This document shows positions 5,936 through 33,200 of a stretch of DNA of 64,000 nucleotides, in pieces. A program made the position numbers and the translations under genes. Origin of the DNA: an uncultured Alphaproteobacteria bacterium (GTDB taxonomy: Bacteria; Pseudomonadota; Alphaproteobacteria; Rs-D84); NCBI GenBank assembly GCA_947054455.1, contig CAMRWN010000003.1, positions 30,681 to 94,680 on the forward strand. The letters run 5' to 3'. The notes under the pieces were generated by a model that did no database searches, had not been told where the DNA came from, and worked only from the letters and a program-made list of their open reading frames with translations. The number at the start of each line of letters is the position of its first letter. The stretch's first letter is position 1.

Positions 5936-6796
5936 ATGGGGGAAAATAAAATGCAAAACGCCGGGCTGGCAAACATAGAAATTTCCGGATTGGAATCCGC
6001 ATTGTCCACGCTGGTGCACGGAACCGTGCAGCTGGGGCTGAAACTGATTGTCGCCGCGGTAATATTCGGCGTCGGCATGCGTCTGGCGTCGCGGCTTACG
6101 GCGTCTTTTGCGCGCGCAATGGAACGTCGCAAGCTGGAGGCGTCCGCGCGTTCGTTCCTGGTGTCTTTTATCAATATTTTGGCCAAGGGATTTGTTTTTA
6201 TAATTGTCCTGACGACGCTGGGGGTTCAGATGACATCGATTGTCGCGGTGTTGGGCGCGGCATCGCTGGCCATAGGAATGGCGCTGCAGGGTACGCTGCA
6301 GAATTTCGCCGGCGGCCTTATTATTTTGATGTTCAAGCCGTTTCGTGTCGGGGATACCATTGAAACCGCCAGCGGCAAGACCGGTGTCGTTAAGAAAATA
6401 GCGATTTTTACAACCGAACTGCGCACATTTGACAATCAGGTTGTATTTTTGCCCAACGGTGCGCTGGCCAACGGGATAATAACGAATTTGTCAAACGGCA
6501 CAAACCGCAGGGCCGATTTGGAAATCGGTATCGCATATGGCGACAATGTCGGCACCGCGCGCAAGGTTATTTTGGATGTTCTGGCGGCGGATGCGCGCGT
6601 ACTGGCGGATCCCGCGCCGTCTGTTTTTGTCGCGCGCCTGTCCGACAGTGCGGTTGTCCTGACCGTGCGTTTTTGGTCGCGGTATGCCGACATGGCGGCG
6701 GCGACGGCCGACATCACTGAAAAAATTTATGTGAACCTGCCAAAGAAAAAGGTTAATTTCCCGTTCCCCCAGATGGATGTCCACATAGTAAAATAA
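5936..6796 (+). CDS. mscS: Small-conductance mechanosensitive channel (MscS family)
   Basis: TM helices followed by PFRVGDTIE..GKTGVVKKIAIFTTELRTFDNQVVFLPNGALANGIITN, the typical MscS beta-domain signature. The start could instead be the ATG at 5951. Confidence 0.85.
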   Translation: MGENKMQNAGLANIEISGLESALSTLVHGTVQLGLKLIVAAVIFGVGMRLASRLTASFARAMERRKLEASARSFLVSFINILAKGFVFIIVLTTLGVQMTSIVAVLGAASLAIGMALQGTLQNFAGGLIILMFKPFRVGDTIETASGKTGVVKKIAIFTTELRTFDNQVVFLPNGALANGIITNLSNGTNRRADLEIGIAYGDNVGTARKVILDVLAADARVLADPAPSVFVARLSDSAVVLTVRFWSRYADMAAATADITEKIYVNLPKKKVNFPFPQMDVHIVK

Positions 6797-7589: not shown

Positions 7590-8006
7590 TTAGTTCTCCA
7601 AATTATTGAACAGGCTAGATTTTATATTGCGGTCTTCATCAACGACAACTTTTGAGGCACATGTTGCAGCGCATGTATTCAAACAATTTGCAATTGTCGT
7701 GGTATTGTCCTGATATTCGCCCATGGCAACCCATTTTGAAACACCGGGATAAATCATTTTGCACCAGCAATTCACGCCCCCTGCTGCCAGTGTTTCCGCA
7801 ACTGTCCCATATTTGGCGGCATTTGACGCGCATGAACTGACACCTTTGATGTCGACAGTGCCGCATCTTATTGTCCAATTAAAAGCACCTGAACTGCGAC
7901 CGCCAGAACAGGTTGATGAACTGTTTAGATTGCTGCATAATACCGCGGCCGCCACCGGCATGGTAATAATTGAAAAAATACAAACAAAAATAAGTTTTCC
8001 GAACAT
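7590..8006 (-). CDS. Small Cys-rich secreted protein (138 aa)
   Basis: Signal peptide MFGKLIFVCIFSIITMPVAAA and SD aagggag. Multiple Cys are present (CSNLNSSSTCSGG..CWCK..CLNTCAATC). Confidence 0.7.
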   Translation of the reverse strand: MFGKLIFVCIFSIITMPVAAAVLCSNLNSSSTCSGGRSSGAFNWTIRCGTVDIKGVSSCASNAAKYGTVAETLAAGGVNCWCKMIYPGVSKWVAMGEYQDNTTTIANCLNTCAATCASKVVVDEDRNIKSSLFNNLEN

Positions 8007-8033: not shown

Positions 8034-8136
8034 AAAAAAACCACCAAAAAGGTGGTCGGGAAGCTCGAAAAATCATAAATCTGAATGACCCCGCGGTCTT
8101 TGGACAAGCCTGTTGTATAACCGCGGCTTCCCGACC
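8034..8136 (-). promoter_or_regulatory. Structured RNA core plus overlapping intrinsic terminator (element A). Candidate cis-regulatory leader or 3' domain of an sRNA.
   Basis: In RNA sense: P1 GGUCGGGAAGC (8136-8126) pairs with GCUUCCCGACC (8064-8054). P2 is CCGCGGU..ACCGCGG and P3 is GUCAU..AUGAU. The terminator is ACCACC-UUUUU-GGUGGU-U7, and its 5' arm overlaps the 3' end of P1. The element is homologous to 16021-16128. Confidence 0.55.
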
Positions 8137-8274
8137 TGTGATGCGTCGGGATAAACACTACGTCGCGAGTAGGCGCGCCGTATGTTCACGTTTTACACCG
8201 GCATGCACCATGCATACCGCAGATTTATGGGATTTTCGAAGTCCCAAACCCAAATTCCCCTTGGATTTAATATA

Positions 8275-8303
8275 ATTATAAATTATGTGCGCGGCAAAAA
8301 CAA
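8275..8303 (-). promoter_or_regulatory. Sigma70-type promoter driving element A
   Basis: Minus strand reads TTGTTT (8303-8298), a 17-nt spacer, then TATAAT (8280-8275). Confidence 0.55.
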
Positions 8304-8320
8304 GATTTATTCGCACACAT

Positions 8321-8346
8321 AAAAAATCCCCCCGTTTTGGGGGATT
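8321..8346 (-). terminator. Intrinsic terminator after the motB-like gene
   Basis: atccccc/gggggat hairpin flanked by A and T runs, so it could act in both directions. Confidence 0.7.
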
Positions 8347-8348
8347 TT

Positions 8349-9461
8349 TTATCGATTGGTCAGCTGCAGTTCTATGCGGCGATTTTTTTGCAGGCTGGCC
8401 GCGTCGCTGCCCAGTTCAACCGGGTGCATGTCGCCAAACCCGCTGGGGACAAGACGGCGTTTTGACACGCCCGCCGCGGCCAGTTCGTTTGCCACCGCCG
8501 TTGCACGCCGCAGCGACAGTTCCGTGTTGTTTCTGTAGCCGCGCGTTCCCGGGACGACCCGTTTTTTATCGGTATGTCCGTCGACACGTATAATCCAGTT
8601 TACGTCGGACGGAATCTTGTTTTCCAAATCCTTTATTACATTGGCAATCAGGCGCAGCTGTTTTTTACCCTCCGGCGACAGCGTGTACGAGCCGCTGGAG
8701 AACAAAATATCGCTGTTTACTATAAACCGGTCGCCGTCGGGCTGGATTGTCGTGCGATCCCCCAGTGCGTCCTTTATCGACTTGTAAAACGCCGATTGAT
8801 ACTGGGACACCTTGTTCAGTTCCGCTACCTTGTCCGCCAGCGCCTTGTTCAAACGCGACGACATTTCAACGTATCTTATTTCCTGGGCGTGGGATTTTTC
8901 CTCGGCTGCATCCAGCGCGGCCTGCAACGATGCCAGCTGGTCCGACAGGGCGGCCCGCTGCGCGTCCATTTGTTCCTGCAGTTGGCGGCGTTCCGCCTCC
9001 AGCTGGGTGGCCTGTTGCTTGTCCAGTGTTGCCTGGTTCAACTGCTGCGTCAAATCCGCAACCATTTGCTGCATGTCCTGGCCCTGGGTCTGCAGTTCCA
9101 GTACCTTGGCCTCGTATGCGGCGACCAAATCTTCGATGCTCAGGTCGATTTCGGTCAGTTCGTTGGTCAGTTCCGTGTTGTCGTTTTCCAGATTTTCCAG
9201 TTCCGCGCGCGCCAGAATCAGCAGACGTTTTGCCTCTTGCTCGTCGGCGGTCATCTGCTGGATTGTCTGGGTTTGTTCCGCATTGACCTGTTTCAGTTCA
9301 GCGATGGTTTTTGCACCGGTTTTTTTGTTAAATATGCTGGTTGTGGTCCACAGGAATACGAACACAATCAGCAGAAATATCAATATGATGACCAGATTGG
9401 AAAACAAATCCACAAAACCCGGCCATGTGTTTGTCTTTTCACGATAGCGTATATTAAGCAT
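8349..9461 (-). CDS. MotB/OmpA-like peptidoglycan-binding stator subunit with a long coiled-coil insert (370 aa)
   Basis: N-terminal TM segment with the conserved Asp (WPGFVDLFSNLVIILIF). A heptad-rich Q/E/L segment of about 200 aa follows. The C-terminal OmpA_C motif reads VDGHTDKK...NNTELSLRRATAVANEL...NRRIELQL. Confidence 0.8.
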   Translation of the reverse strand: MLNIRYREKTNTWPGFVDLFSNLVIILIFLLIVFVFLWTTTSIFNKKTGAKTIAELKQVNAEQTQTIQQMTADEQEAKRLLILARAELENLENDNTELTNELTEIDLSIEDLVAAYEAKVLELQTQGQDMQQMVADLTQQLNQATLDKQQATQLEAERRQLQEQMDAQRAALSDQLASLQAALDAAEEKSHAQEIRYVEMSSRLNKALADKVAELNKVSQYQSAFYKSIKDALGDRTTIQPDGDRFIVNSDILFSSGSYTLSPEGKKQLRLIANVIKDLENKIPSDVNWIIRVDGHTDKKRVVPGTRGYRNNTELSLRRATAVANELAAAGVSKRRLVPSGFGDMHPVELGSDAASLQKNRRIELQLTNR

Positions 9462-15092: not shown

Positions 15093-15108
15093 CCTTTGCA
15101 ATAAAAAA

Positions 15109-15133
15109 ATCCCGCAATTGCGGGATTTTTTTT
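15109..15133 (+). terminator. Intrinsic terminator
   Basis: atcccgcaattgcgggat palindromic hairpin followed by a T8 run. Confidence 0.8.
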
Positions 15134-15202
15134 ATCAAAAGCGTCCTATGGTTTTGCAGGTTCGGGCGGCGTATAATATTGTTGCCCAAGGAGGAATGCG
15201 CC

Positions 15203-15523
15203 ATGCCTTTTTTTGGTGATGTAAAAACCGTATATACGCCGGTGAAAAAGCTGAGCCAGCCCGAGATATTGCGTGCGATTCAATTCGCCATTGCATCGGA
15301 ATACGAAACAATACAGGTATATCAGCAAATTATGGAAAGCACGGACAATGACATGGTAAAAACCGTGTTGGCGGATTTGACGAATGATGAAATGCATCAT
15401 GCGGGGGCGTTGCTAAAGCTGCTGTATATTTTATCGCCACAGGATGCGGCGCAATATGAAATCGGGGCCCAGAAAGTGTTGCAGGATTTGGGAATAGGGG
15501 GGATGCGCGAACTGCCGGAATAG
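15203..15523 (+). CDS. Small ferritin-like protein resembling encapsulated ferritin (EncFtn)
   Basis: The ATG at 15203 is preceded by aaggagg, whereas the track ORF starts at the TTG at 15179. The pattern EILRAIQFAIASEYETIQVYQQ...DMVKTVLADLTNDEMHHAGALLKLL resembles EncFtn (E..AI..Y.Q ... VL....EE.EH). The C-terminus reads DLGIGGMRELPE. Confidence 0.5.
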   Translation: MPFFGDVKTVYTPVKKLSQPEILRAIQFAIASEYETIQVYQQIMESTDNDMVKTVLADLTNDEMHHAGALLKLLYILSPQDAAQYEIGAQKVLQDLGIGGMRELPE

Positions 15524-15559: not shown

Positions 15560-15770
15560 TTGATTTTGGAAATTTGATGATATATAATGATGGCGACGTC
15601 AATGATATTTGACGTTGGGGCGTAAGAACCTCTTAATTCAGAGCGTGCCTGAGCACGAAAAATCTCTAACTATTCTGGTTGGAGGGCGGCGATATATCTG
15701 AATAAGCCCGCTATTTCTCTGAATTATAGTTCTTAACCTCCAACCACCTTTGTTTGTGGTTGATTTTTTT
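15560..15770 (+). promoter_or_regulatory. Promoter, ~175-nt structured RNA and terminator unit (element C1). Candidate sRNA or attenuator.
   Basis: TTGATT (15560-15565), 17-nt spacer, TATAAT (15583-15588). A 17-bp interrupted helix joins 15623-15643 to 15717-15735. GGUUGGAGG (15677-85) can pair with CCUCCAACC (15737-45), which overlaps the terminator CAACCAC-loop-GUGGUUG-U7 (15741-15770). Confidence 0.5.
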
Positions 15771-16020
15771 GTCCCGGGTGGAATTTGGGTGTGTTTCCTC
15801 ATCTCCACACAACCACGAAATGCACTTGAATCTTTCAGCCGGGACACCTTGTTAATTTACTTGTTTTTATATTATTTTATGATATCATTTTTAACAGAAT
15901 CAGTAAGGGATTGCTGGTTCGGGGCTTCACTAGCCCGAATACACCGGAATAAGTCCACGTTGGCTGTTTGCCAAACGTTTCTATGGATTTATGTCGTTAA
16001 AAAATCCCCCGATTATAAAA

Positions 16021-16128
16021 GGTCGGGGAGCTGTTGGTTATATAACACGGGCAACCGAAAGGCCAATGGAGTCATTAGTGTATTTGATTAGTGAACTCCC
16101 CGACCGCCACTTGTTGAGCGGTCTTTTT
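16021..16128 (+). promoter_or_regulatory. Structured RNA core plus overlapping intrinsic terminator (element D), homologous to element A
   Basis: P1 is GGUCGGGGAG (16021-30) with CUCCCCGACC (16096-105). P2 is UUGG..CCAA and P3 is GUCA..UGAU. The terminator GACCGC-loop-GCGGUC-U5 (16102-16128) shares GACC with P1. It ends 27 nt before the ATG of 16155-16898. Confidence 0.55.
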
Positions 16129-16154
16129 ATTTCTGTAATAAAAGGAGTACACTC

Positions 16155-16898
16155 ATGAAAAAATTATTGTTAACATCAGTCATGGCTTTGTCGGTTGCAA
16201 GCGTCGCGCATGCGGACGGATTTTATATCAGCCCGCGCGTCGCATGGTCGCAAATGCGTGTGGACGAAGCGCGCATTGAAAAGAAGCCGATTGCCGGCGC
16301 GTGGTCTGAATTTGCCGGAAACAAACGCGAATCCTGGGGCGGGCGTGAAAGCAAACTGGCGCCAAAGTTTGCGGTCGGTTATGACCATGATGCTGAAGAA
16401 TACGGTATTTTGGGTCTGGAACTGGAATATGGTAAAACATCAAACCATTTTGATCCGACGCACAACGGCGTCGACTTTGACGGCGCATCACCCAATGACA
16501 GCGACAGCCGCGATTTTAAATACGGCGAATCCACATTGTCGTTGAACGCAAAATACGGATATGATTTGAAGTATGTAATTCCGTTTGTATCCGCTGGTAT
16601 CGGCTATACGACGATAGATTCAGAAAACAATTTCCGCAGTGGAACATATTGGTGGGAAACGCGCGATAGCGAACGCAACGTGTCTTGGAACATCGGGGCC
16701 GGTATAGAATTGCGTGCGACGGACCAAGTTTCATTCAGCTTGTCATATCGCTATACTGATTTGGGCAGTGTAAAATACACGAACCGGATGTACCATGAAA
16801 ACGCCAAGACAAACAGCAACGTGATTGAACGCAACTTTGATTCCGATGTTGACTTGCACAAACATGAAATTATCGGTGGTGTAAAATTCATGTTTTAA
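16155..16898 (+). CDS. Outer-membrane beta-barrel protein (Omp25/OMP_b-brl-like porin family)
   Basis: Signal peptide MKKLLLTSVMALSVASVAHA, SD aaggag, alternating beta-strand pattern, and C-terminal ...GGVKFMF. Confidence 0.8.
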   Translation: MKKLLLTSVMALSVASVAHADGFYISPRVAWSQMRVDEARIEKKPIAGAWSEFAGNKRESWGGRESKLAPKFAVGYDHDAEEYGILGLELEYGKTSNHFDPTHNGVDFDGASPNDSDSRDFKYGESTLSLNAKYGYDLKYVIPFVSAGIGYTTIDSENNFRSGTYWWETRDSERNVSWNIGAGIELRATDQVSFSLSYRYTDLGSVKYTNRMYHENAKTNSNVIERNFDSDVDLHKHEIIGGVKFMF

Positions 16899-17616: not shown

Positions 17617-19674
17617 ATGAATCCAGAAGAAATGCAGGAAACGCCGCAACAGGCGATAGAAAAATATACCACCGATTTTACCAAGCTGGCGGCGGATGGA
17701 AAGTTGGACCCGGTTATCGGCCGGGACGAAGAAATTCGTCGCACAATCCAGGTCTTGTCGCGTCGTACCAAGAACAATCCGGTATTGATTGGAAATCCGG
17801 GGGTCGGAAAAACCGCGATTGTAGAAGGACTGGCCGAACGCATCATTTCCCGCGATATTCCGGAAAATCTGCAGAATAAAAAGCTGCTTAGTCTGGATAT
17901 GGGCGCACTGATGGCGGGCGCCATGTTCCGTGGTCAGTTTGAAGCGCGTCTGAAGGCGATACTAAAGGCCGTCAAGGATTCCGACGGACAAATCATTCTG
18001 TTCATAGACGAATTGCACACGCTGGTTGGCGCGGGCAAGGGCGAAGGTTCCATGGATGCGGGCAATTTGCTAAAACCCATGTTGGCGCGCGGTGAATTGC
18101 ACTGTCTGGGGGCGACGACGCTGGACGAATATCGTCAATATATAGAAAAAGACCCGGCGCTGGCGCGACGCTTTCAGCCGGTGTACGTAGATGAACCGAC
18201 CGTTGATGACACAATATCGATTTTGCGCGGTCTAAAGGAAAAATACGAAGGACATCATGGTGTCCGCATTTCCGACAGCGCATTGGTTTCGGCGGTAAAT
18301 TTATCGAATCGATATATAACCGACAGATTTTTGCCGGACAAGGCAATCGACCTGATTGACGAGGCCGCCGCCCGCGTCCGCATAGAGGTTGCGTCCAAGC
18401 CGGAAAAGCTGGACGAAATCGACCGCCGACTGATGCAGCTGAAGATAGAGCAGCAGGCGCTGAAGAAAGAAAAGGACGAAGATTCCAAAAAGCGTCTGAA
18501 AGACTTGGAAAAACTAATTCGCGAAACCGAAGACGAATCGGCCCAGCTGACCAAGGTTTGGCGTGCGGAGCAGGAAAAGATGCGCGCGTTGTCGGATGCG
18601 ATGGCGGCGCTGGATTCTGCCAAGGCCGAAGTTGCGACAGCCATGCGCGAAGGCAATTATGAAAAGGCGTCCGCACTGCAGTACGGCAAGATTCCGGAAC
18701 TGGAGGAAAAAATCCGCCAAATGAACGCGGATGCGCGCGAATACAAGACGGTTTTGCCGGAACACATTGCGACCGTGGTCAGCAAATGGACCGGCGTTCC
18801 CGCAGATAAACTGAGCGTAGAGGAGCAGTCAAAACTGCTGAACATCGAGGACGAGTTGCGCGCACGTGTCGTAGGCCAGGATTTGGCGCTGTCGGTTGTG
18901 GCGCGCGCAATCCGGCGCAGCCGCGCGGGATTGTCCGACCCGCGTCGTCCCGCCGGCAGCTTTATGTTTTTGGGGCCGACCGGCGTCGGTAAAACCGAGG
19001 TTGCAAAAGCGCTGGCCGAATATTTGTTCAACGACGACACGGCCATGACCCGCATTGATATGAGCGAATATATGGAACCGCATTCGGTTTCGCGCCTGAT
19101 TGGCAGTCCTCCGGGGTATGTCGGATACGAGCAGGGCGGTGTTCTGACCGAAAGCGTGCGCCGGCGCCCGTACCAGGTGCTGCTGTTTGATGAAATCGAA
19201 AAGGCAAACCCGGACGTGTTCAACGTATTTCTGCAGATTCTGGACGACGGCCGGTTGACCGACGGCCAGGGCCATGTCGTGAATTTCACCAACACGATTA
19301 TTATCATGACCAGCAATCTGCCTGATATGGAGGCGGTAAAGAAACATTTCAGACCGGAATTTATAAACCGTATTGATGAAATTGTTTTCTTTAATCCGCT
19401 GGGCAAGGAAGTGATGGCCGGCATAGTAAAAATTCAGCTAAAGGGTCTGGAAAACAGACTGGCGCAGCGCCGCATATCGCTGGACGTGTCGGACAAGGCT
19501 GTAAAGTGGCTGGGCGAACACGGATACGATCCTGTATTTGGCGCCCGTCCGTTAAAGCGTCTGATAACGTCTGCGGTCGAAGATAAAATCGCCGATTTGA
19601 TTCTGGCGGACAAGATTGCCGAAGGTGGCACCGTTCATGTCGATGTCAAGGGCAAGGATTTGACGGTTAAATAA
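17617..19674 (+). CDS. clpB: ClpB disaggregase lacking the N-terminal domain (685 aa)
   Basis: Two AAA+ modules ([16 protein letters not shown]) and a coiled-coil M-domain. The protein begins at ...[37 protein letters not shown], which is roughly residue 150 in full-length ClpB. Confidence 0.9.
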
Positions 19675-30261: not shown

Positions 30262-33200
30262 TTATTTGGCGACCGGGCTATAGTCAACCATCCATTTTGT
30301 TTTGTATAGTGCATTTGTTCCATTTTTATCCAAATATGGGCATTTTTCGAAGCGAACAAATCTCCATGCGTCGCTTTTCTCAGCTTTTTCTGCCGTTATT
30401 TTGCATGTATTCTGTTCGCCGTTTGCGGATTTAGGCTTGTATTGGAACGATAACAGCGGATTGCTGGTCTGGGGATTTGTCGATGTTGGCGGTGTCAAAT
30501 AACGATATGAGCCATTTCCTATGCTAAACAGTATGTATTGGCCGTCGCACTGTACGGTTTTCCCAGATGGATAATTTGCATCTTCTGTCGTTGCATTTTC
30601 CGTTCCGTGTGGTGCCGTATCGCTTAGGCAATACAGGTAATTATAAGCAGGGATACTATCCTCGTATTCGGTTTTGGGAGTTATATATACATATGACACA
30701 ACAAAGTGCATGTTGTGGCTGTTGGCATTGGCCGGCACGCAAAATTTTATTTTTTTATCCGATGTTTGTAGGGTACCAAAGTAATCGGTTATGCTTGTGC
30801 TCAAATTAGTCTCTATTACTCCATTCGTACAGCAATTGCCCATGCTGTCCAGTTCGCCGGCCGTGCCGTCCGCCTTGATGCAGCAGTTTTCCAAATAATA
30901 ATCATTAAATACCGACGGCGGGTTTGAATTTATTTTTTCATAATCGGCGCTGCATGCCTGGCCGTCGCCCTTGGATACCATTGAATCCGGTACGCAAACC
31001 AATGCGCCGTTGCTGTCAATGCTGGATACAAAGCCGATTCCGCAGCTGGTGTCGCGGCAGCTGTCATCGCGGTTCTGGGTGCCTGTATTGACCGCAAACC
31101 ATGACAACAATGTCGATGTGGAAGAATCAACCGGCGTGCGGATGCGGTTGTGGCTGCCCGCGCTGTTAAGCTGTTTGTCGGATGATACCTCGCAGTTGCC
31201 CCACAGGCTTTCCGACAGGCGGCACACCTTGCACTGGTGTGAATTCGGCTGCTGGCATTCGGTGGTGCAAATGTCATGGACGCAGTTCATTGCGATTACT
31301 TTTCCGTTTTCGTCGCGCAGCGGACGCAGTTCGCACGACTGTGTGGTGTCGGATTCAGCATACGTGGTCTGGGGGGCGTTTGTTATTTCCGGCGGCGGCG
31401 TTTTGCCGTACAACTGGCCATAGAAGGAGTTTGTGCCGGCATCCAGCAGGCCGCGTTTGTCCAGTTGCGCCATTATGTTGCTGATTGCCTCTTCGCCCGC
31501 GCTGTCGACACAGTTTTTAACCTCGTTCCAGCAGGCCGAGCGGTTGATTATCGATTTGCGGTTGACCGATGTCTGGATGTTTTCACACAGACCGAAATTG
31601 CCGGAAATAGATTTGCATGCCTGGATGATGCAGGCGCGTCCAACCTCGCGGCAGGTCTGCATGATGGTTTCATACGTGGTGTCTGTCGCGATTTCGGTCA
31701 TGCCGCCAATCCATTCGTCCGCGCCGCCGCCCGTCGATTCCAGCAGCGCCGTGCATGCCATGCGCACATCGGCGCACATCGCGTTTACCGTCTTGTTTGC
31801 GTCGACGCCGAACGTTGACAGCGCGCGCGCGTCAAAGTCGGCCAATGATTTTGCCGTCTCGGACAGGCACTGGGTGGTCAGTGTGGTGCAGCTTTGGCGC
31901 ATTGTTTCCAGTTTGTCGTCCTGGGCCAGTTTTATCTGCGCCAGCGCGTCTTCAATAAATTCATCCCATACGTAATCGGAAATATCCTGGCAGTTTTCCA
32001 TCGCCGGGGCCAAAAACTTTTTCTTGGAATTCAGAAAAGATACGAACGTGTCGTTGCCGGGCGCGGTTGTCCATGTCTGGCCGGCGTCGGGGCGTTTTAT
32101 CAGATTGGCCAGATTCGCCAGTTCCACCGTCAGGAACGCTTCGCCGGTCGACGGGTCTATGTATCGGCCCGACGTGTCCAGACACTTGGTCAAATCAGTG
32201 CCGCAAACCGAAGAATCCGTCAGCATGTCCAGCATCTTCTTTTTGCAGGTCAATATGTCGTCCGAATTGCGCTTTTGATATATGTCCAGACGCGACATGT
32301 CCAGCAATGCGCCGCCTTCGCGCAGTTTTTCGCGCGCCTGGTCGGTCTGGGTCTGGTACGATTTGGCGACGGTGTTGCAGTCCTGTTCGATTGTCATCTG
32401 GTATCCGCTTTCCGCGATAGCCAGTTCATCTTCGCTGCAAACCTCTTGCGCCATTTGGCGGCATACCGGCAGGGCGGCTGAATACAGGGCGGTTCCGCTT
32501 TTGCCGGTGGTTGATGCCCCCAGCATCGAATCGACGCTGTCGAATGCGGCGTCTGCGTTCAGCGACCACGACAGCGATGACAGGTTGGTGTCAAAATTAC
32601 TGCTGTCAAAGCTGGTGTTTAGCTTCTTGGCGATTTCATCCAGCATCTTTTTTGATGCGGACGTGTCTTTTTGATTGAACGCCTGTTCACCCTCGGTCGC
32701 TTTGAACAATGCATCTGCGTCTTCCTTGTCCATGTTGACGGTCAGCAGACGTTGGTTGAAATCCAGCATTTTTTCTTCAACATCGGACAGTTGCCGCTTG
32801 TATTTGTCAAATTCGTTTGCACGGGACGAACATGCGCAACGCCGCAGCTGTGCATCCTTGTTCGCGCAAAATTCATCCATGCAGTCGTAATACACCTCGC
32901 GGCATTTGGAATAGTTTTTGGATATTACGTCTTCACGGGTCAGGGCGGCGCTGCGTGCGATTTGCGTGGCGCCCGCGCGTGATGTGGTGGCGGCCCGCGA
33001 CGGGGTTCTGGATGTTGTGGCGGTGCGCGATGTAGCCGTGCGCGTGGCCGCGCGCGATGCGGTTGCGTGGGATGTTGTGGCGGTGCGCGACACTGTTGCA
33101 CTGGGGCGCGATGCGGCGGTTCGTGCGGTGGTGGAATTGGTTTGCGTCGCGCGTGATTGAACGCCGGCAGCGGTTCGTGCGGCCACGCCCGTGGATGCGG

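Follow-up and report, generated by a model that had tools for sequence, protein, structure and literature searches.

The DNA analyzed here, referred to as the window, is a 64,000-nucleotide stretch (positions 30,681 to 94,680 of contig CAMRWN010000003.1, assembly GCA_947054455.1) from an uncultured alphaproteobacterium of the lineage Rs-D84, and the element of interest is a structured RNA leader of ~235 nucleotides (nt) that is encoded on the minus strand at 8303-8034 (copy 1) and again on the plus strand at 15856-16132 (copy 2). The window has a GC content of 50.5%, and the neighboring genes encode ClpB, L28, MscS, YgiW, OmpA-like, and DsbA-like proteins; the setting is chromosomal, among housekeeping genes, and not an integron, prophage, transposon, or plasmid, and the relatives of the element are spread on chromosomal contigs of metagenome-assembled genomes (MAGs). 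The features of copy 1 are as follows.

8303-8275, minus strand: predicted promoter, TTGTTT (8303-8298), 17 nt, and TATAAT (8280-8275), read from the sequence
8268-8246, minus strand: 5'-terminal hairpin H1, AAAUCCAAG-GGGAA-UUUGGGUUU, with a GNRA-type GGGA loop, from the minimum free energy (MFE) fold
8245-8229, minus strand: hairpin H2, GGGAC-UUCGAAAA-UCCC, whose loop is box A (UCGAAAA, 8239-8233), complementary to J3/1
8229-8220, minus strand: box B, CAUAAAUCUG, complementary to the P3 loop and the start of the P3 3' strand
8218-8160, minus strand: middle hairpins H3 (8218-8200) and P0 (8181-8160), then U-rich GUGUUUAU, from the MFE fold
8150-8145, minus strand: anti-P1 decoy CCCGAC, which pairs with the P1 5' strand GUCGGG
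8136-8054, minus strand: three-way junction (3WJ), an 83-nt divergent core of the sRNA-Xcc1 type (RF02221, 41.5 bits; R1 model, 103.6 bits; covariation)
8136-8126 with 8064-8054, minus strand: P1, 11 bp, from the MFE fold
8125-8092, minus strand: P2, CGCGGU.../...ACCGCG, with the internal-loop box UUAUACAACA at 8120-8111, from the MFE fold
8089-8072, minus strand: P3, GUCAU/AUGAU, with its loop box at 8083-8074, from the MFE fold
8071-8065, minus strand: J3/1 box, UUUUCGA
8057-8034, minus strand: intrinsic terminator GACCACC-UUUUU-GGUGGUU (8057-8039) plus U7, from a terminator scanner
8017-7590, minus strand: gene with Shine-Dalgarno (SD) sequence AGGGAG (8017-8012) and ATG at 8006, encoding a 138-amino-acid (aa) protein with a hydrophobic N-terminus

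A 235-nt noncoding stretch lies between the copy 1 promoter and the end of the U7 tract at 8034, and the ATG at 8006 lies 27 nt beyond the T-run. A consensus promoter scanner ranked a weaker site (TTGCCG-17-TATATT), 6 nt further downstream, above the TTGTTT/TATAAT pair. Across the related leaders a TANNNT hexamer ends 5-6 nt ahead of H1; this spacing fits TATAAT as the -10 element and would place the transcription start of copy 1 near 8268. The core (8136-8054) folded into the 3WJ topology with an MFE of -39.2 kcal/mol (z = -3.7), and box B forms a 10-nt Watson-Crick match to its P3 partner. The tetranucleotide GACC is shared by the P1 3' strand, as its last 4 nt, and by the terminator 5' arm, as its first 4 nt. 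An earlier note, written from the sequence letters, had described the promoter, a terminator at 8056-8034 located 27 nt ahead of the ATG, the 83-nt junction with its three helices, and the shared GACC; all of these were recovered, the promoter with the family spacing, the terminator by the scanner at 8057-8039 plus T7, and the junction by MFE folding at 8136-8054. The 138-aa protein matched no Pfam family, and exact-sequence look-up recovered it on one 1.5-kb ENA metagenome contig only. A bidirectional terminator-like hairpin, AAAAAATCCCCC-AAAAC-GGGGGGATTTTTT, at 8320-8349 divides the OmpA-like gene (8349-9461, minus strand) from the copy 1 promoter.

Copy 2 has the same arrangement on the opposite strand.

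15856-16132, plus strand: complete leader (folding, RF02221, R1 model)
15856-15883, plus strand: predicted promoter, TTTACT-16-TATGAT
15897-15920, plus strand: H1
15921-15936, plus strand: H2 and box A
15926-15932 with 16089-16095, plus strand: box A with J3/1
15938-15944 with 16078-16084, plus strand: box B with the P3 loop
16005-16012, plus strand: anti-P1
16021-16105, plus strand: 3WJ
16102-16123, plus strand: terminator, with a T-run as far as 16132
16142-16898, plus strand: gene with SD sequence AAGGAG and ATG at 16155, encoding a 247-aa outer-membrane beta-barrel protein (Pfam OMP_b-brl, E = 3.6e-16)

The copy 2 core adopted the copy 1 topology (MFE -40.1 kcal/mol, z = -3.0), and the two copies are 69% identical over their cores and 60% identical over the entire leaders. 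The claim that a second copy begins at 16021, with the same helices, an overlapping terminator, and a gene for an outer-membrane protein behind it, was thus borne out by the fold, the core identity, and the OMP_b-brl match. The P1 pattern was expected 0.00 times in shuffles. The copy 2 terminator was overlooked by the scanner because its loop is 10 nt. Exact-sequence look-up of the outer-membrane protein returned no match. Read on the minus strand, the copy 2 anti-P1 hairpin (16005-16027) followed by the T-run CCCCGACCUUUUAUAAUCGGGGGAUUUUUU resembles a terminator, which explains a weak reverse-strand model match at 15989-16130.

Relation to sRNA-Xcc1 and a family of gut relatives

At Rfam gathering thresholds the whole window yielded three tRNAs and nothing else. 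In a permissive local scan, both cores aligned to the small RNA (sRNA) family sRNA-Xcc1 (RF02221) over model positions 1-87 of 87, with 41.5 bits for copy 1 (E = 4.9e-6) and 38.1 bits for copy 2 (E = 2.7e-5), scores that fall below the RF02221 gathering score of 53 bits; for the upstream domain of ~130 nt, Rfam offered nothing credible even with the E-value limit raised to 10. Seven alphaproteobacterial relatives scored 37.4-46.7 bits against RF02221, and the phage-contig elements tested, which were taken from a loose pattern scan of viral contigs that returned many elements, are true members of the family (59.6-86.6 bits). Both window copies possess the full-length RF02221 junction, with a P1 of at least 9 bp, a P2 with an AUACAA internal loop, and a P3 hairpin. 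Because the match is full length yet below the curated threshold, the element was filed as a divergent relative and not as an RF02221 member. Judged by sequence and predicted fold, the window cores belong to a divergent sRNA-Xcc1-related subfamily, an extended variant of a known RNA fold and not a new kind of system; the earlier note, which could match the element to no RNA family, was mistaken on this point.

Hitherto, sRNA-Xcc1 has been read through predicted trans targets and virulence. In Xanthomonas campestris 8004 it was detected as an 88-nt RNA by Northern blot and rapid amplification of cDNA ends (PMC2996969); in the most widespread integron cassette of Xanthomonas it precedes symE (bioRxiv 10.1101/2025.06.18.660453), in APSE phages it precedes an ORF6N gene (bioRxiv 10.1101/2020.03.17.996009), and multiple copies are present in Xylella (seven, five of them in tandem; PMC12189769) and in Aeromonas salmonicida J223 (15; PMC8780938). 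A literature search found no publications that treat sRNA-Xcc1 as a riboswitch or attenuator.

Relatives were collected by scanning representative genomes with the pattern GGTCGGG, N4-12, TTATAYAACA, N38-64, CCCGACC, which returned at least 118 loci. Counts given here out of 119, 116, 114, 108, and so on refer to copies among the matches listed, nearly all of which are in MAGs of gut Alphaproteobacteria (Candidatus Enterousia, Rickettsiales-labelled genomes, and ruminant, human, and bird gut bins), with at least seven copies in MAG OH_HBB_125. Enterousia is a member of the uncultured order Rs-D84, with genomes mostly <1 Mb (PMC12306168). Judging from where the element occurs, the window probably derives from an organism of this kind. 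A covariance model (R1) built from 69 diverse copies scored copy 1 at 103.6 bits and copy 2 at 98.4 bits (E ~1e-25), and 116 copies were aligned with it. Standard pairs occupied 94.9% of the cells, two-sided changes were found in 23 of the 27 pairs with 383 compensatory cells, and the observed values were reached in none of 500 shuffles; when the partners were slid by 1-3 columns, pairing fell to 28-53%. Covariation was seen in P1 positions 8-10, all of P2, P2b, P3, and the distal terminator stem, in agreement with the earlier claim of a layout conserved through compensatory changes. The 13 copies that were found by the model only, and hence provide an unbiased view, kept the fixed motifs with small variations and contained compensatory changes in the outer P1. 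When RNAalifold was given a plain MAFFT alignment, indels put P2 and P3 out of register, so that no more than P1 and a portion of the terminator was recovered; the covariance-model alignment was used instead.

The conservation is not confined to the core, for the upstream sequence of the relatives is conserved back to the -10 box. The H1 loop is GGGA in 56 of the 61 detected cases, on 31 different stem pairs. Box A, ~96 nt upstream, has a match of at least 7 nt to J3/1 in 60% of cognate versus 9% of non-cognate combinations (p = 2e-35, 52 pair types), and box B, which follows box A collinearly after 3-5 nt, is complementary over at least 8 nt to the P3 loop and the beginning of the P3 3' strand in 64% versus 1.9% (p = 8e-56, 88 distinct pairs). 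The anti-P1 element, CCYGAC(C), precedes P1 by 2-10 nt and is the complement of P1 positions 1-8. At least 8 contiguous bp were found in 54% of the copies, whereas a control window (-100 to -61) gave 2.6%. Variation at P1 position 8 is accompanied by covariation of the base facing it (A:T in 10/12, G:C or G:T in 39/57, T:A or T:G in 22/28, and C:G in 2/2), and in a shorter subtype of the element, described below, anti-P1 tracks the changes of P1, as in GGUCAGGAGG with CUCCUGACC. Testing anti-P1 by a contiguous-helix statistic against mononucleotide shuffles gave no information, since the G-rich P1 readily pairs with T-rich sequence, and the real-sequence control window and the covariation were used in its place. 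The 83-nt core described in the earlier note is real, but it is part of the 3' half of a larger structure with three further covarying long-range pairings; the functional unit predicted from this conservation is the whole ~235-nt leader.

Several other features recur among the leaders. Among unpaired sequences, the P2 internal loop is the best conserved across all types. It reads UUAUAYAACA/AAAG in the gut subfamily and is of the AUACAAYA/GAA type in phages; integron members of sRNA-Xcc1 share it as well, and in the shorter subtype the conserved P2 sequence is fused into the loop GAAUAUAUUGAAUAAG. The tetranucleotide that follows P1 fits RYCA in 83 of 114 copies (GCCA 49, GTCA 20, ACCA 8, and ATCA 6), and corresponds in the window to 8050-8053 (minus strand) and 16106-16109 (plus strand). 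This sequence resembles the discriminator-CCA end of a tRNA acceptor stem, and the same bases form the terminator arm and covary with it. By analogy, RYCA could make the junction a substrate of RNase P; the phage C4 RNA is reportedly such a substrate. Just upstream of anti-P1, a GC hairpin of the P0 type with a T-rich tail was detected in 61 of 114 leaders when the stretch from -80 to -6 relative to P1 was scanned, compared with 2/114 in the control, and the P0 of these relatives resembles a weak internal terminator or pause site; the copy 1 P0 hairpin (8160-8181) failed this terminator-like scan. No conserved leader peptide was apparent in the window copies or the family listing, and no known protein-binding motif was recognized in the leader.

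Alternative folds of the leader and the proposed attenuator

A hairpin with a T-rich tail directly follows P1 in 115 of the 119 copies, and its 5' arm begins exactly at the G of the final GACC, the same nucleotide as in copy 1, in 93/119. The predicted 4-nt overlap of P1 with the terminator is a trait of the family. A same-strand open reading frame (ORF) with an SD sequence follows in 108 of the 119 copies, at a median of 48 nt from the end of P1 to the start codon (41-60 nt in ~85 copies), and the start codon in the leader layout lies ~17-20 nt past the U-tract. Beyond a terminator of ~30 nt, only a ribosome-binding site (RBS) fits before the start codon, so the gene would have to be transcribed by read-through. 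The lack of room for a second promoter is what chiefly speaks for a cis-acting leader and against a free-standing sRNA.

Unconstrained MFE folding of both full leaders gave one and the same topology (z = -6.4 for copy 1 and -5.8 for copy 2), which is not that of the isolated core. It contains H1, an anti-P1 hairpin, P2, and the complete terminator, plus a long interrupted duplex in which the GGG of H2, box A, and box B are opposite the P3 loop, J3/1, and the inner P1 3' strand. Forcing P1 to form in the full transcript cost 13.2 kcal/mol (copy 1) and 6.7 kcal/mol (copy 2), whereas in a nascent RNA ending 6 nt after P1 the cost was reduced to 5.6 and 2.1 kcal/mol, respectively, all of these energies accounting for secondary structure only, with tertiary and pseudoknot contacts outside the model. 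Every junction strand has a second partner and none is left over in the terminator fold, which points to the design of a two-state switch.

On the basis of these predicted pairings, we consider it likely that the leader is a cis-acting, two-state transcription attenuator for the gene immediately downstream. Transcription would start at the leader's own sigma-70-type promoter and would pass in order through H1, H2 with box A, box B, the middle hairpins, anti-P1, the sRNA-Xcc1-related 3WJ, and the intrinsic terminator. In the OFF state, which corresponds to the MFE topology, anti-P1 would take the P1 5' strand, box B, box A, and the H2 GGG would pair collinearly with the P3 loop, J3/1, and the inner P1 3' strand, and the GACC thus freed would complete the terminator. 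In the ON state, the local H2, P3, and P1 would form, the junction would close, the terminator would be short of 4 of its 7-10 bp, and RNA polymerase would read into the gene. Because the OFF state is favored by 2-6 kcal/mol in the nascent RNA, the energies suggest that OFF is the default and that ON needs a stabilizer of the junction.

The best candidate for the binding site of such a stabilizer, judging from conservation, is the P2 internal loop UUAUAYAACA/AAAG. As to the effector, we would roughly give a little over a third of the weight to a small molecule or ion, that is, to a riboswitch, somewhat under a third to a protein or RNA polymerase itself, and the rest to kinetic or temperature control. 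The leader combines features of riboswitches (a covarying structured domain and an expression platform that competes with the closing helix P1) with those of attenuators (a hairpin and U-tract directly before a gene and the exclusive pairings of an antiterminator and anti-antiterminator). Of the riboswitch or attenuator platform proposed at the outset, the attenuator architecture alone is established by the predicted pairings, and a ligand-binding riboswitch is possible but unproven.

Comparison with the phage-type members indicates that the platform differs between lineages. In 57 phage-type cores, P3 plus J3/1 paired with the downstream 70 nt better in cognate than in non-cognate combinations (-21.0 versus -16.7 kcal/mol, p = 1.6e-9); on inspection by eye, these targets lie on either side of the SD sequence, and a terminator directly follows P1 in only 1 of the 57. 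For the alphaproteobacterial copies (n = 87), the RBS complementarity was no better for cognate pairs (-8.2 versus -7.9 kcal/mol, p = 0.16), and masking of the RBS by the P3 loop, as suggested by the phage-type members, was rejected for the gut subfamily. RBS pairing in the phage-type members and a terminator in the gut Alphaproteobacteria suggest one conserved domain with a translational platform in one lineage and a transcriptional platform in the other. By analogy with the behavior of riboswitch classes, junction closure would withdraw an antisense segment in both lineages, with ligand binding only a candidate trigger.

Some details of the phage-type loci may be recorded here. Many copies (L004-L066 and other viral loci) have TAT immediately before P1, and 20-60 nt upstream of the core there is a T-run hairpin with CCCGAC, CCCGAA, or CCCGTC, the complement of the P1 5' strand, which may represent either an anti-P1 of the phage type or, in a tandem array, the end of the preceding RNA. 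In phage contig L066, a Burkholderiales-2 RNA (RF02917, 94.1 bits) at 6600-6673 (plus strand) lies ~2.2 kb from an sRNA-Xcc1 copy.

The genes behind the gut leaders encode 82 distinct proteins, most of them without a Pfam family. Those with matches comprise GT2 glycosyltransferases (9), OMP beta-barrel, autotransporter, and YadA-anchor proteins, cysteine-rich secreted proteins, a sulfatase-family protein, RgpF, and a few HTH and UvrD proteins, and the N-terminus resembles a signal peptide or membrane helix in 58 of 108, with both window genes fitting this description. Secreted or outer-membrane proteins and glycosyltransferases make up most of the predicted regulon, which suggests that the leaders control the cell surface.

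A third unit of the shorter subtype, complete from promoter to terminator, lies ~125 nt upstream of the copy 2 promoter.

15560-15771, plus strand: third unit (R1 match at 15653-15779, 27.1 bits, E ~2e-5)
15560-15588, plus strand: predicted promoter, TTGATT-17-TATAAT
15595-15616, plus strand: H1
15617-15632, plus strand: H2 and box A
15634-15643, plus strand: box B
15664-15670, plus strand: anti-P1
P1, plus strand: GGUUGGAGG/CCUCCAACC
P2, plus strand: a plain hairpin with the loop GAUAUAUCUGAAUAAG
15741-15762, plus strand: terminator plus T7

Behind the third unit there is no gene but the copy 2 promoter, so that two leaders stand in tandem ahead of the OMP gene. The shorter subtype, with a P1 of the GGUCAGGAGG type, a simple-hairpin P2, and its own H1, H2, boxes, anti-P1, and terminator, was also present at four other loci (L189, L220, L175, and L123), and an ORF with a signal peptide begins 11-21 nt past the modelled region in three of the four (L189, L220, and L175; none was found for L123). 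The possibility that the third unit is a decayed pseudo-element was ruled out because the same variant is conserved in four other genomes. An ORF of ~106 aa (15204-15523, plus strand) separates the DsbA-like gene from the tandem leaders and follows AGGAGG, with a terminator-like sequence at 15106-15134 and a promoter-like sequence at 15150-15180 ahead of it; its DEMHHAG motif is reminiscent of ferritin-like or rubrerythrin-type proteins. The ClpB ORF (17617-19674, plus strand) aligns only from position 148 of the 853-position ClpB model, with the N-terminal domain seemingly missing or separately encoded. Neisseria DNA uptake sequences and Pasteurellaceae uptake signal sequences were looked for, and neither is present.

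Several points weigh against the reading as an attenuator. The collecting pattern fixed GGTCGGG, TTATAYAACA, and CCCGACC, so that the invariance of the outer P1 and the P2 box is partly by construction, and the alignment behind the covariation counts was fitted to the structure being tested. The pairing of boxes A and B could be a tertiary contact of the ON fold, as the covariation fits both states, and the promoter, like termination and read-through, is a prediction. P1 and the terminator share only 4 nt, and P1 can coexist with a shortened terminator; the mutual exclusion of the two that was claimed at the outset therefore stands as a competition but is partial, and a full switch needs further pairings outside the core that was then considered. 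In addition, the downstream genes do not single out one metabolite, the shorter-subtype unit of the window has no gene behind it, and the Xanthomonas relative accumulates as a discrete 88-nt RNA (PMC2996969).

Alternative explanations

The last two of these points also bear on the suggestion that the element is a free-standing gene for a trans-acting sRNA, as RF02221 is annotated, with the downstream gene incidental. The matches to sRNA-Xcc1 are full length, though sub-threshold, and the unit has its own promoter and a strong terminator. This interpretation is unlikely, however, when 108 of the 119 copies face a same-strand ORF, ~85 of them at a distance that leaves no space for a promoter. 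Furthermore, the variable loops are complementary to boxes of their own leader instead of being free, and essentially every segment is paired in the predicted terminated RNA. Published relatives are also found directly upstream of genes, as noted above for symE and ORF6N.

Processive antitermination of the put or EAR kind would have the junction bind RNA polymerase so that the terminator is resisted, without ligand-driven refolding; the put system of phage HK022 is the model for this reading. Such a role would suit a family that is abundant in phage contigs, has P1 and P2 internal loop sequences common to very distant hosts, requires its terminator to be read through for gene expression, and carries a terminator-like P0 hairpin inside many leaders. 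Anti-P1, boxes A and B, and the P1/terminator overlap would be superfluous for modification of the polymerase but are required by a refolding switch, and the phage-type members carry an RBS-pairing platform and not terminators. We regard this mechanism as improbable, slightly more so than that of a trans-acting sRNA.

A module of the C4/CI antisense type, in which the junction is processed out of the transcript and its P3 loop and J3/1 block the downstream RBS, agrees with the cognate pairing of the phage-type members described above and with the tRNA-3'-end-like RYCA after P1. Both window copies also have good duplexes with their own RBS regions (-13.1 and -13.4 kcal/mol). Among the 87 alphaproteobacterial copies, however, the cognate RBS pairing is no better than the non-cognate pairing, the covarying partners of the P3 loop and J3/1 are located upstream in the leader, and RF01695 gave no match even at E up to 10. 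This makes such a module very unlikely for the gut subfamily.

The reading as a miniature inverted-repeat transposable element or repetitive extragenic palindromic sequence (MITE/REP), with GGTCGGG/CCCGACC as terminal inverted repeats and copies spread by transposition, was raised as an alternative in the earlier note and is rejected as scarcely credible: there are several copies per genome and the 7-11-nt ends are inverted repeats, but the window copies are only 60-69% identical with all helices kept by compensatory changes, the orientation and spacing to the downstream start codon of the same-strand ORF are fixed, and the conserved unit reaches ~130 nt upstream of the supposed repeat and includes its own promoter.

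Implications and comparison with known systems

If the attenuator interpretation is true, sRNA-Xcc1 would be re-read as a cis-regulatory module that stands before genes and has lineage-specific expression platforms. A ~235-nt leader with five sets of covarying pairings at no fewer than 118 loci would have been missed by the curated gathering thresholds of Rfam. Its position would be ahead of secreted, outer-membrane, and glycosyltransferase genes of uncultured gut Alphaproteobacteria with reduced genomes, whose functions shape interactions with the host and community, and the complete swapping of partners would make it a compact natural two-state switch from which a search for the effector could start. 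More tentatively, and with considerable doubt, the sRNA-Xcc1 fold may be the sensor domain of a widespread, unrecognized riboswitch-like class with exchangeable platforms, using RBS pairing in phages and integrons and a terminator with decoys in gut Alphaproteobacteria; its P2 loop and junction might bind a general signal, such as a second messenger or ion, and so gate much of the secreted and surface proteome of Enterousia/Rs-D84 with their <1-Mb genomes.

Among known systems, the junction riboswitches of the purine and thiamine pyrophosphate classes likewise have a covarying 3WJ whose P1 shares nucleotides with an intrinsic terminator, and likewise couple one conserved domain to a transcriptional or a translational platform according to lineage. 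Unlike these riboswitches, the present leader uses a hypervariable P3 loop for intramolecular pairing and not for a conserved tertiary contact, possesses two extra decoy pairings and a 130-nt 5' domain, and precedes a predicted regulon that does not appear to be a metabolic pathway, and its ligand is only putative. With the attenuators of the trp type (1:2/2:3/3:4) and the protein-dependent ribonucleic antiterminators of BglG/SacY, it shares successive exclusive helices, a terminator before the gene, and an anti-antiterminator; it differs from them in that no conserved leader peptide is apparent and no known protein-binding motif was recognized.

The C4 (P1/P7) and CI (P4) phage antisense RNAs are small structured RNAs in a leader that act through two loops on two-box targets upstream and at the RBS. 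The leader described here resembles them as a structured RNA in a leader with two loop elements complementary to two-box targets in the same transcript, but it does not match RF01695, and RBS pairing is unsupported in the gut subfamily.

The closest similarity is to sRNA-Xcc1 itself, as found in Xanthomonas integron cassettes, prophages, and plasmids and in Xylella and Aeromonas. Both have a 3WJ of equal size and topology, a P1 of the form GGYCGGG/CCCGRCC, a P2 internal loop of the AUAYAAYA/GAA type, often with a GNRA cap, a variable P3, RCC after P1, and a position directly upstream of a gene, and in both J3/1 and the P3 loop are complementary to a collinear two-box partner in the same transcript. 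In contrast to sRNA-Xcc1, where they sit at the downstream RBS, the partner boxes of the gut leaders are found ~100 nt upstream as part of an additional, conserved 5' domain; a terminator overlaps P1 and is accompanied by the anti-P1 decoy, and the setting is chromosomal and not that of an integron or phage.

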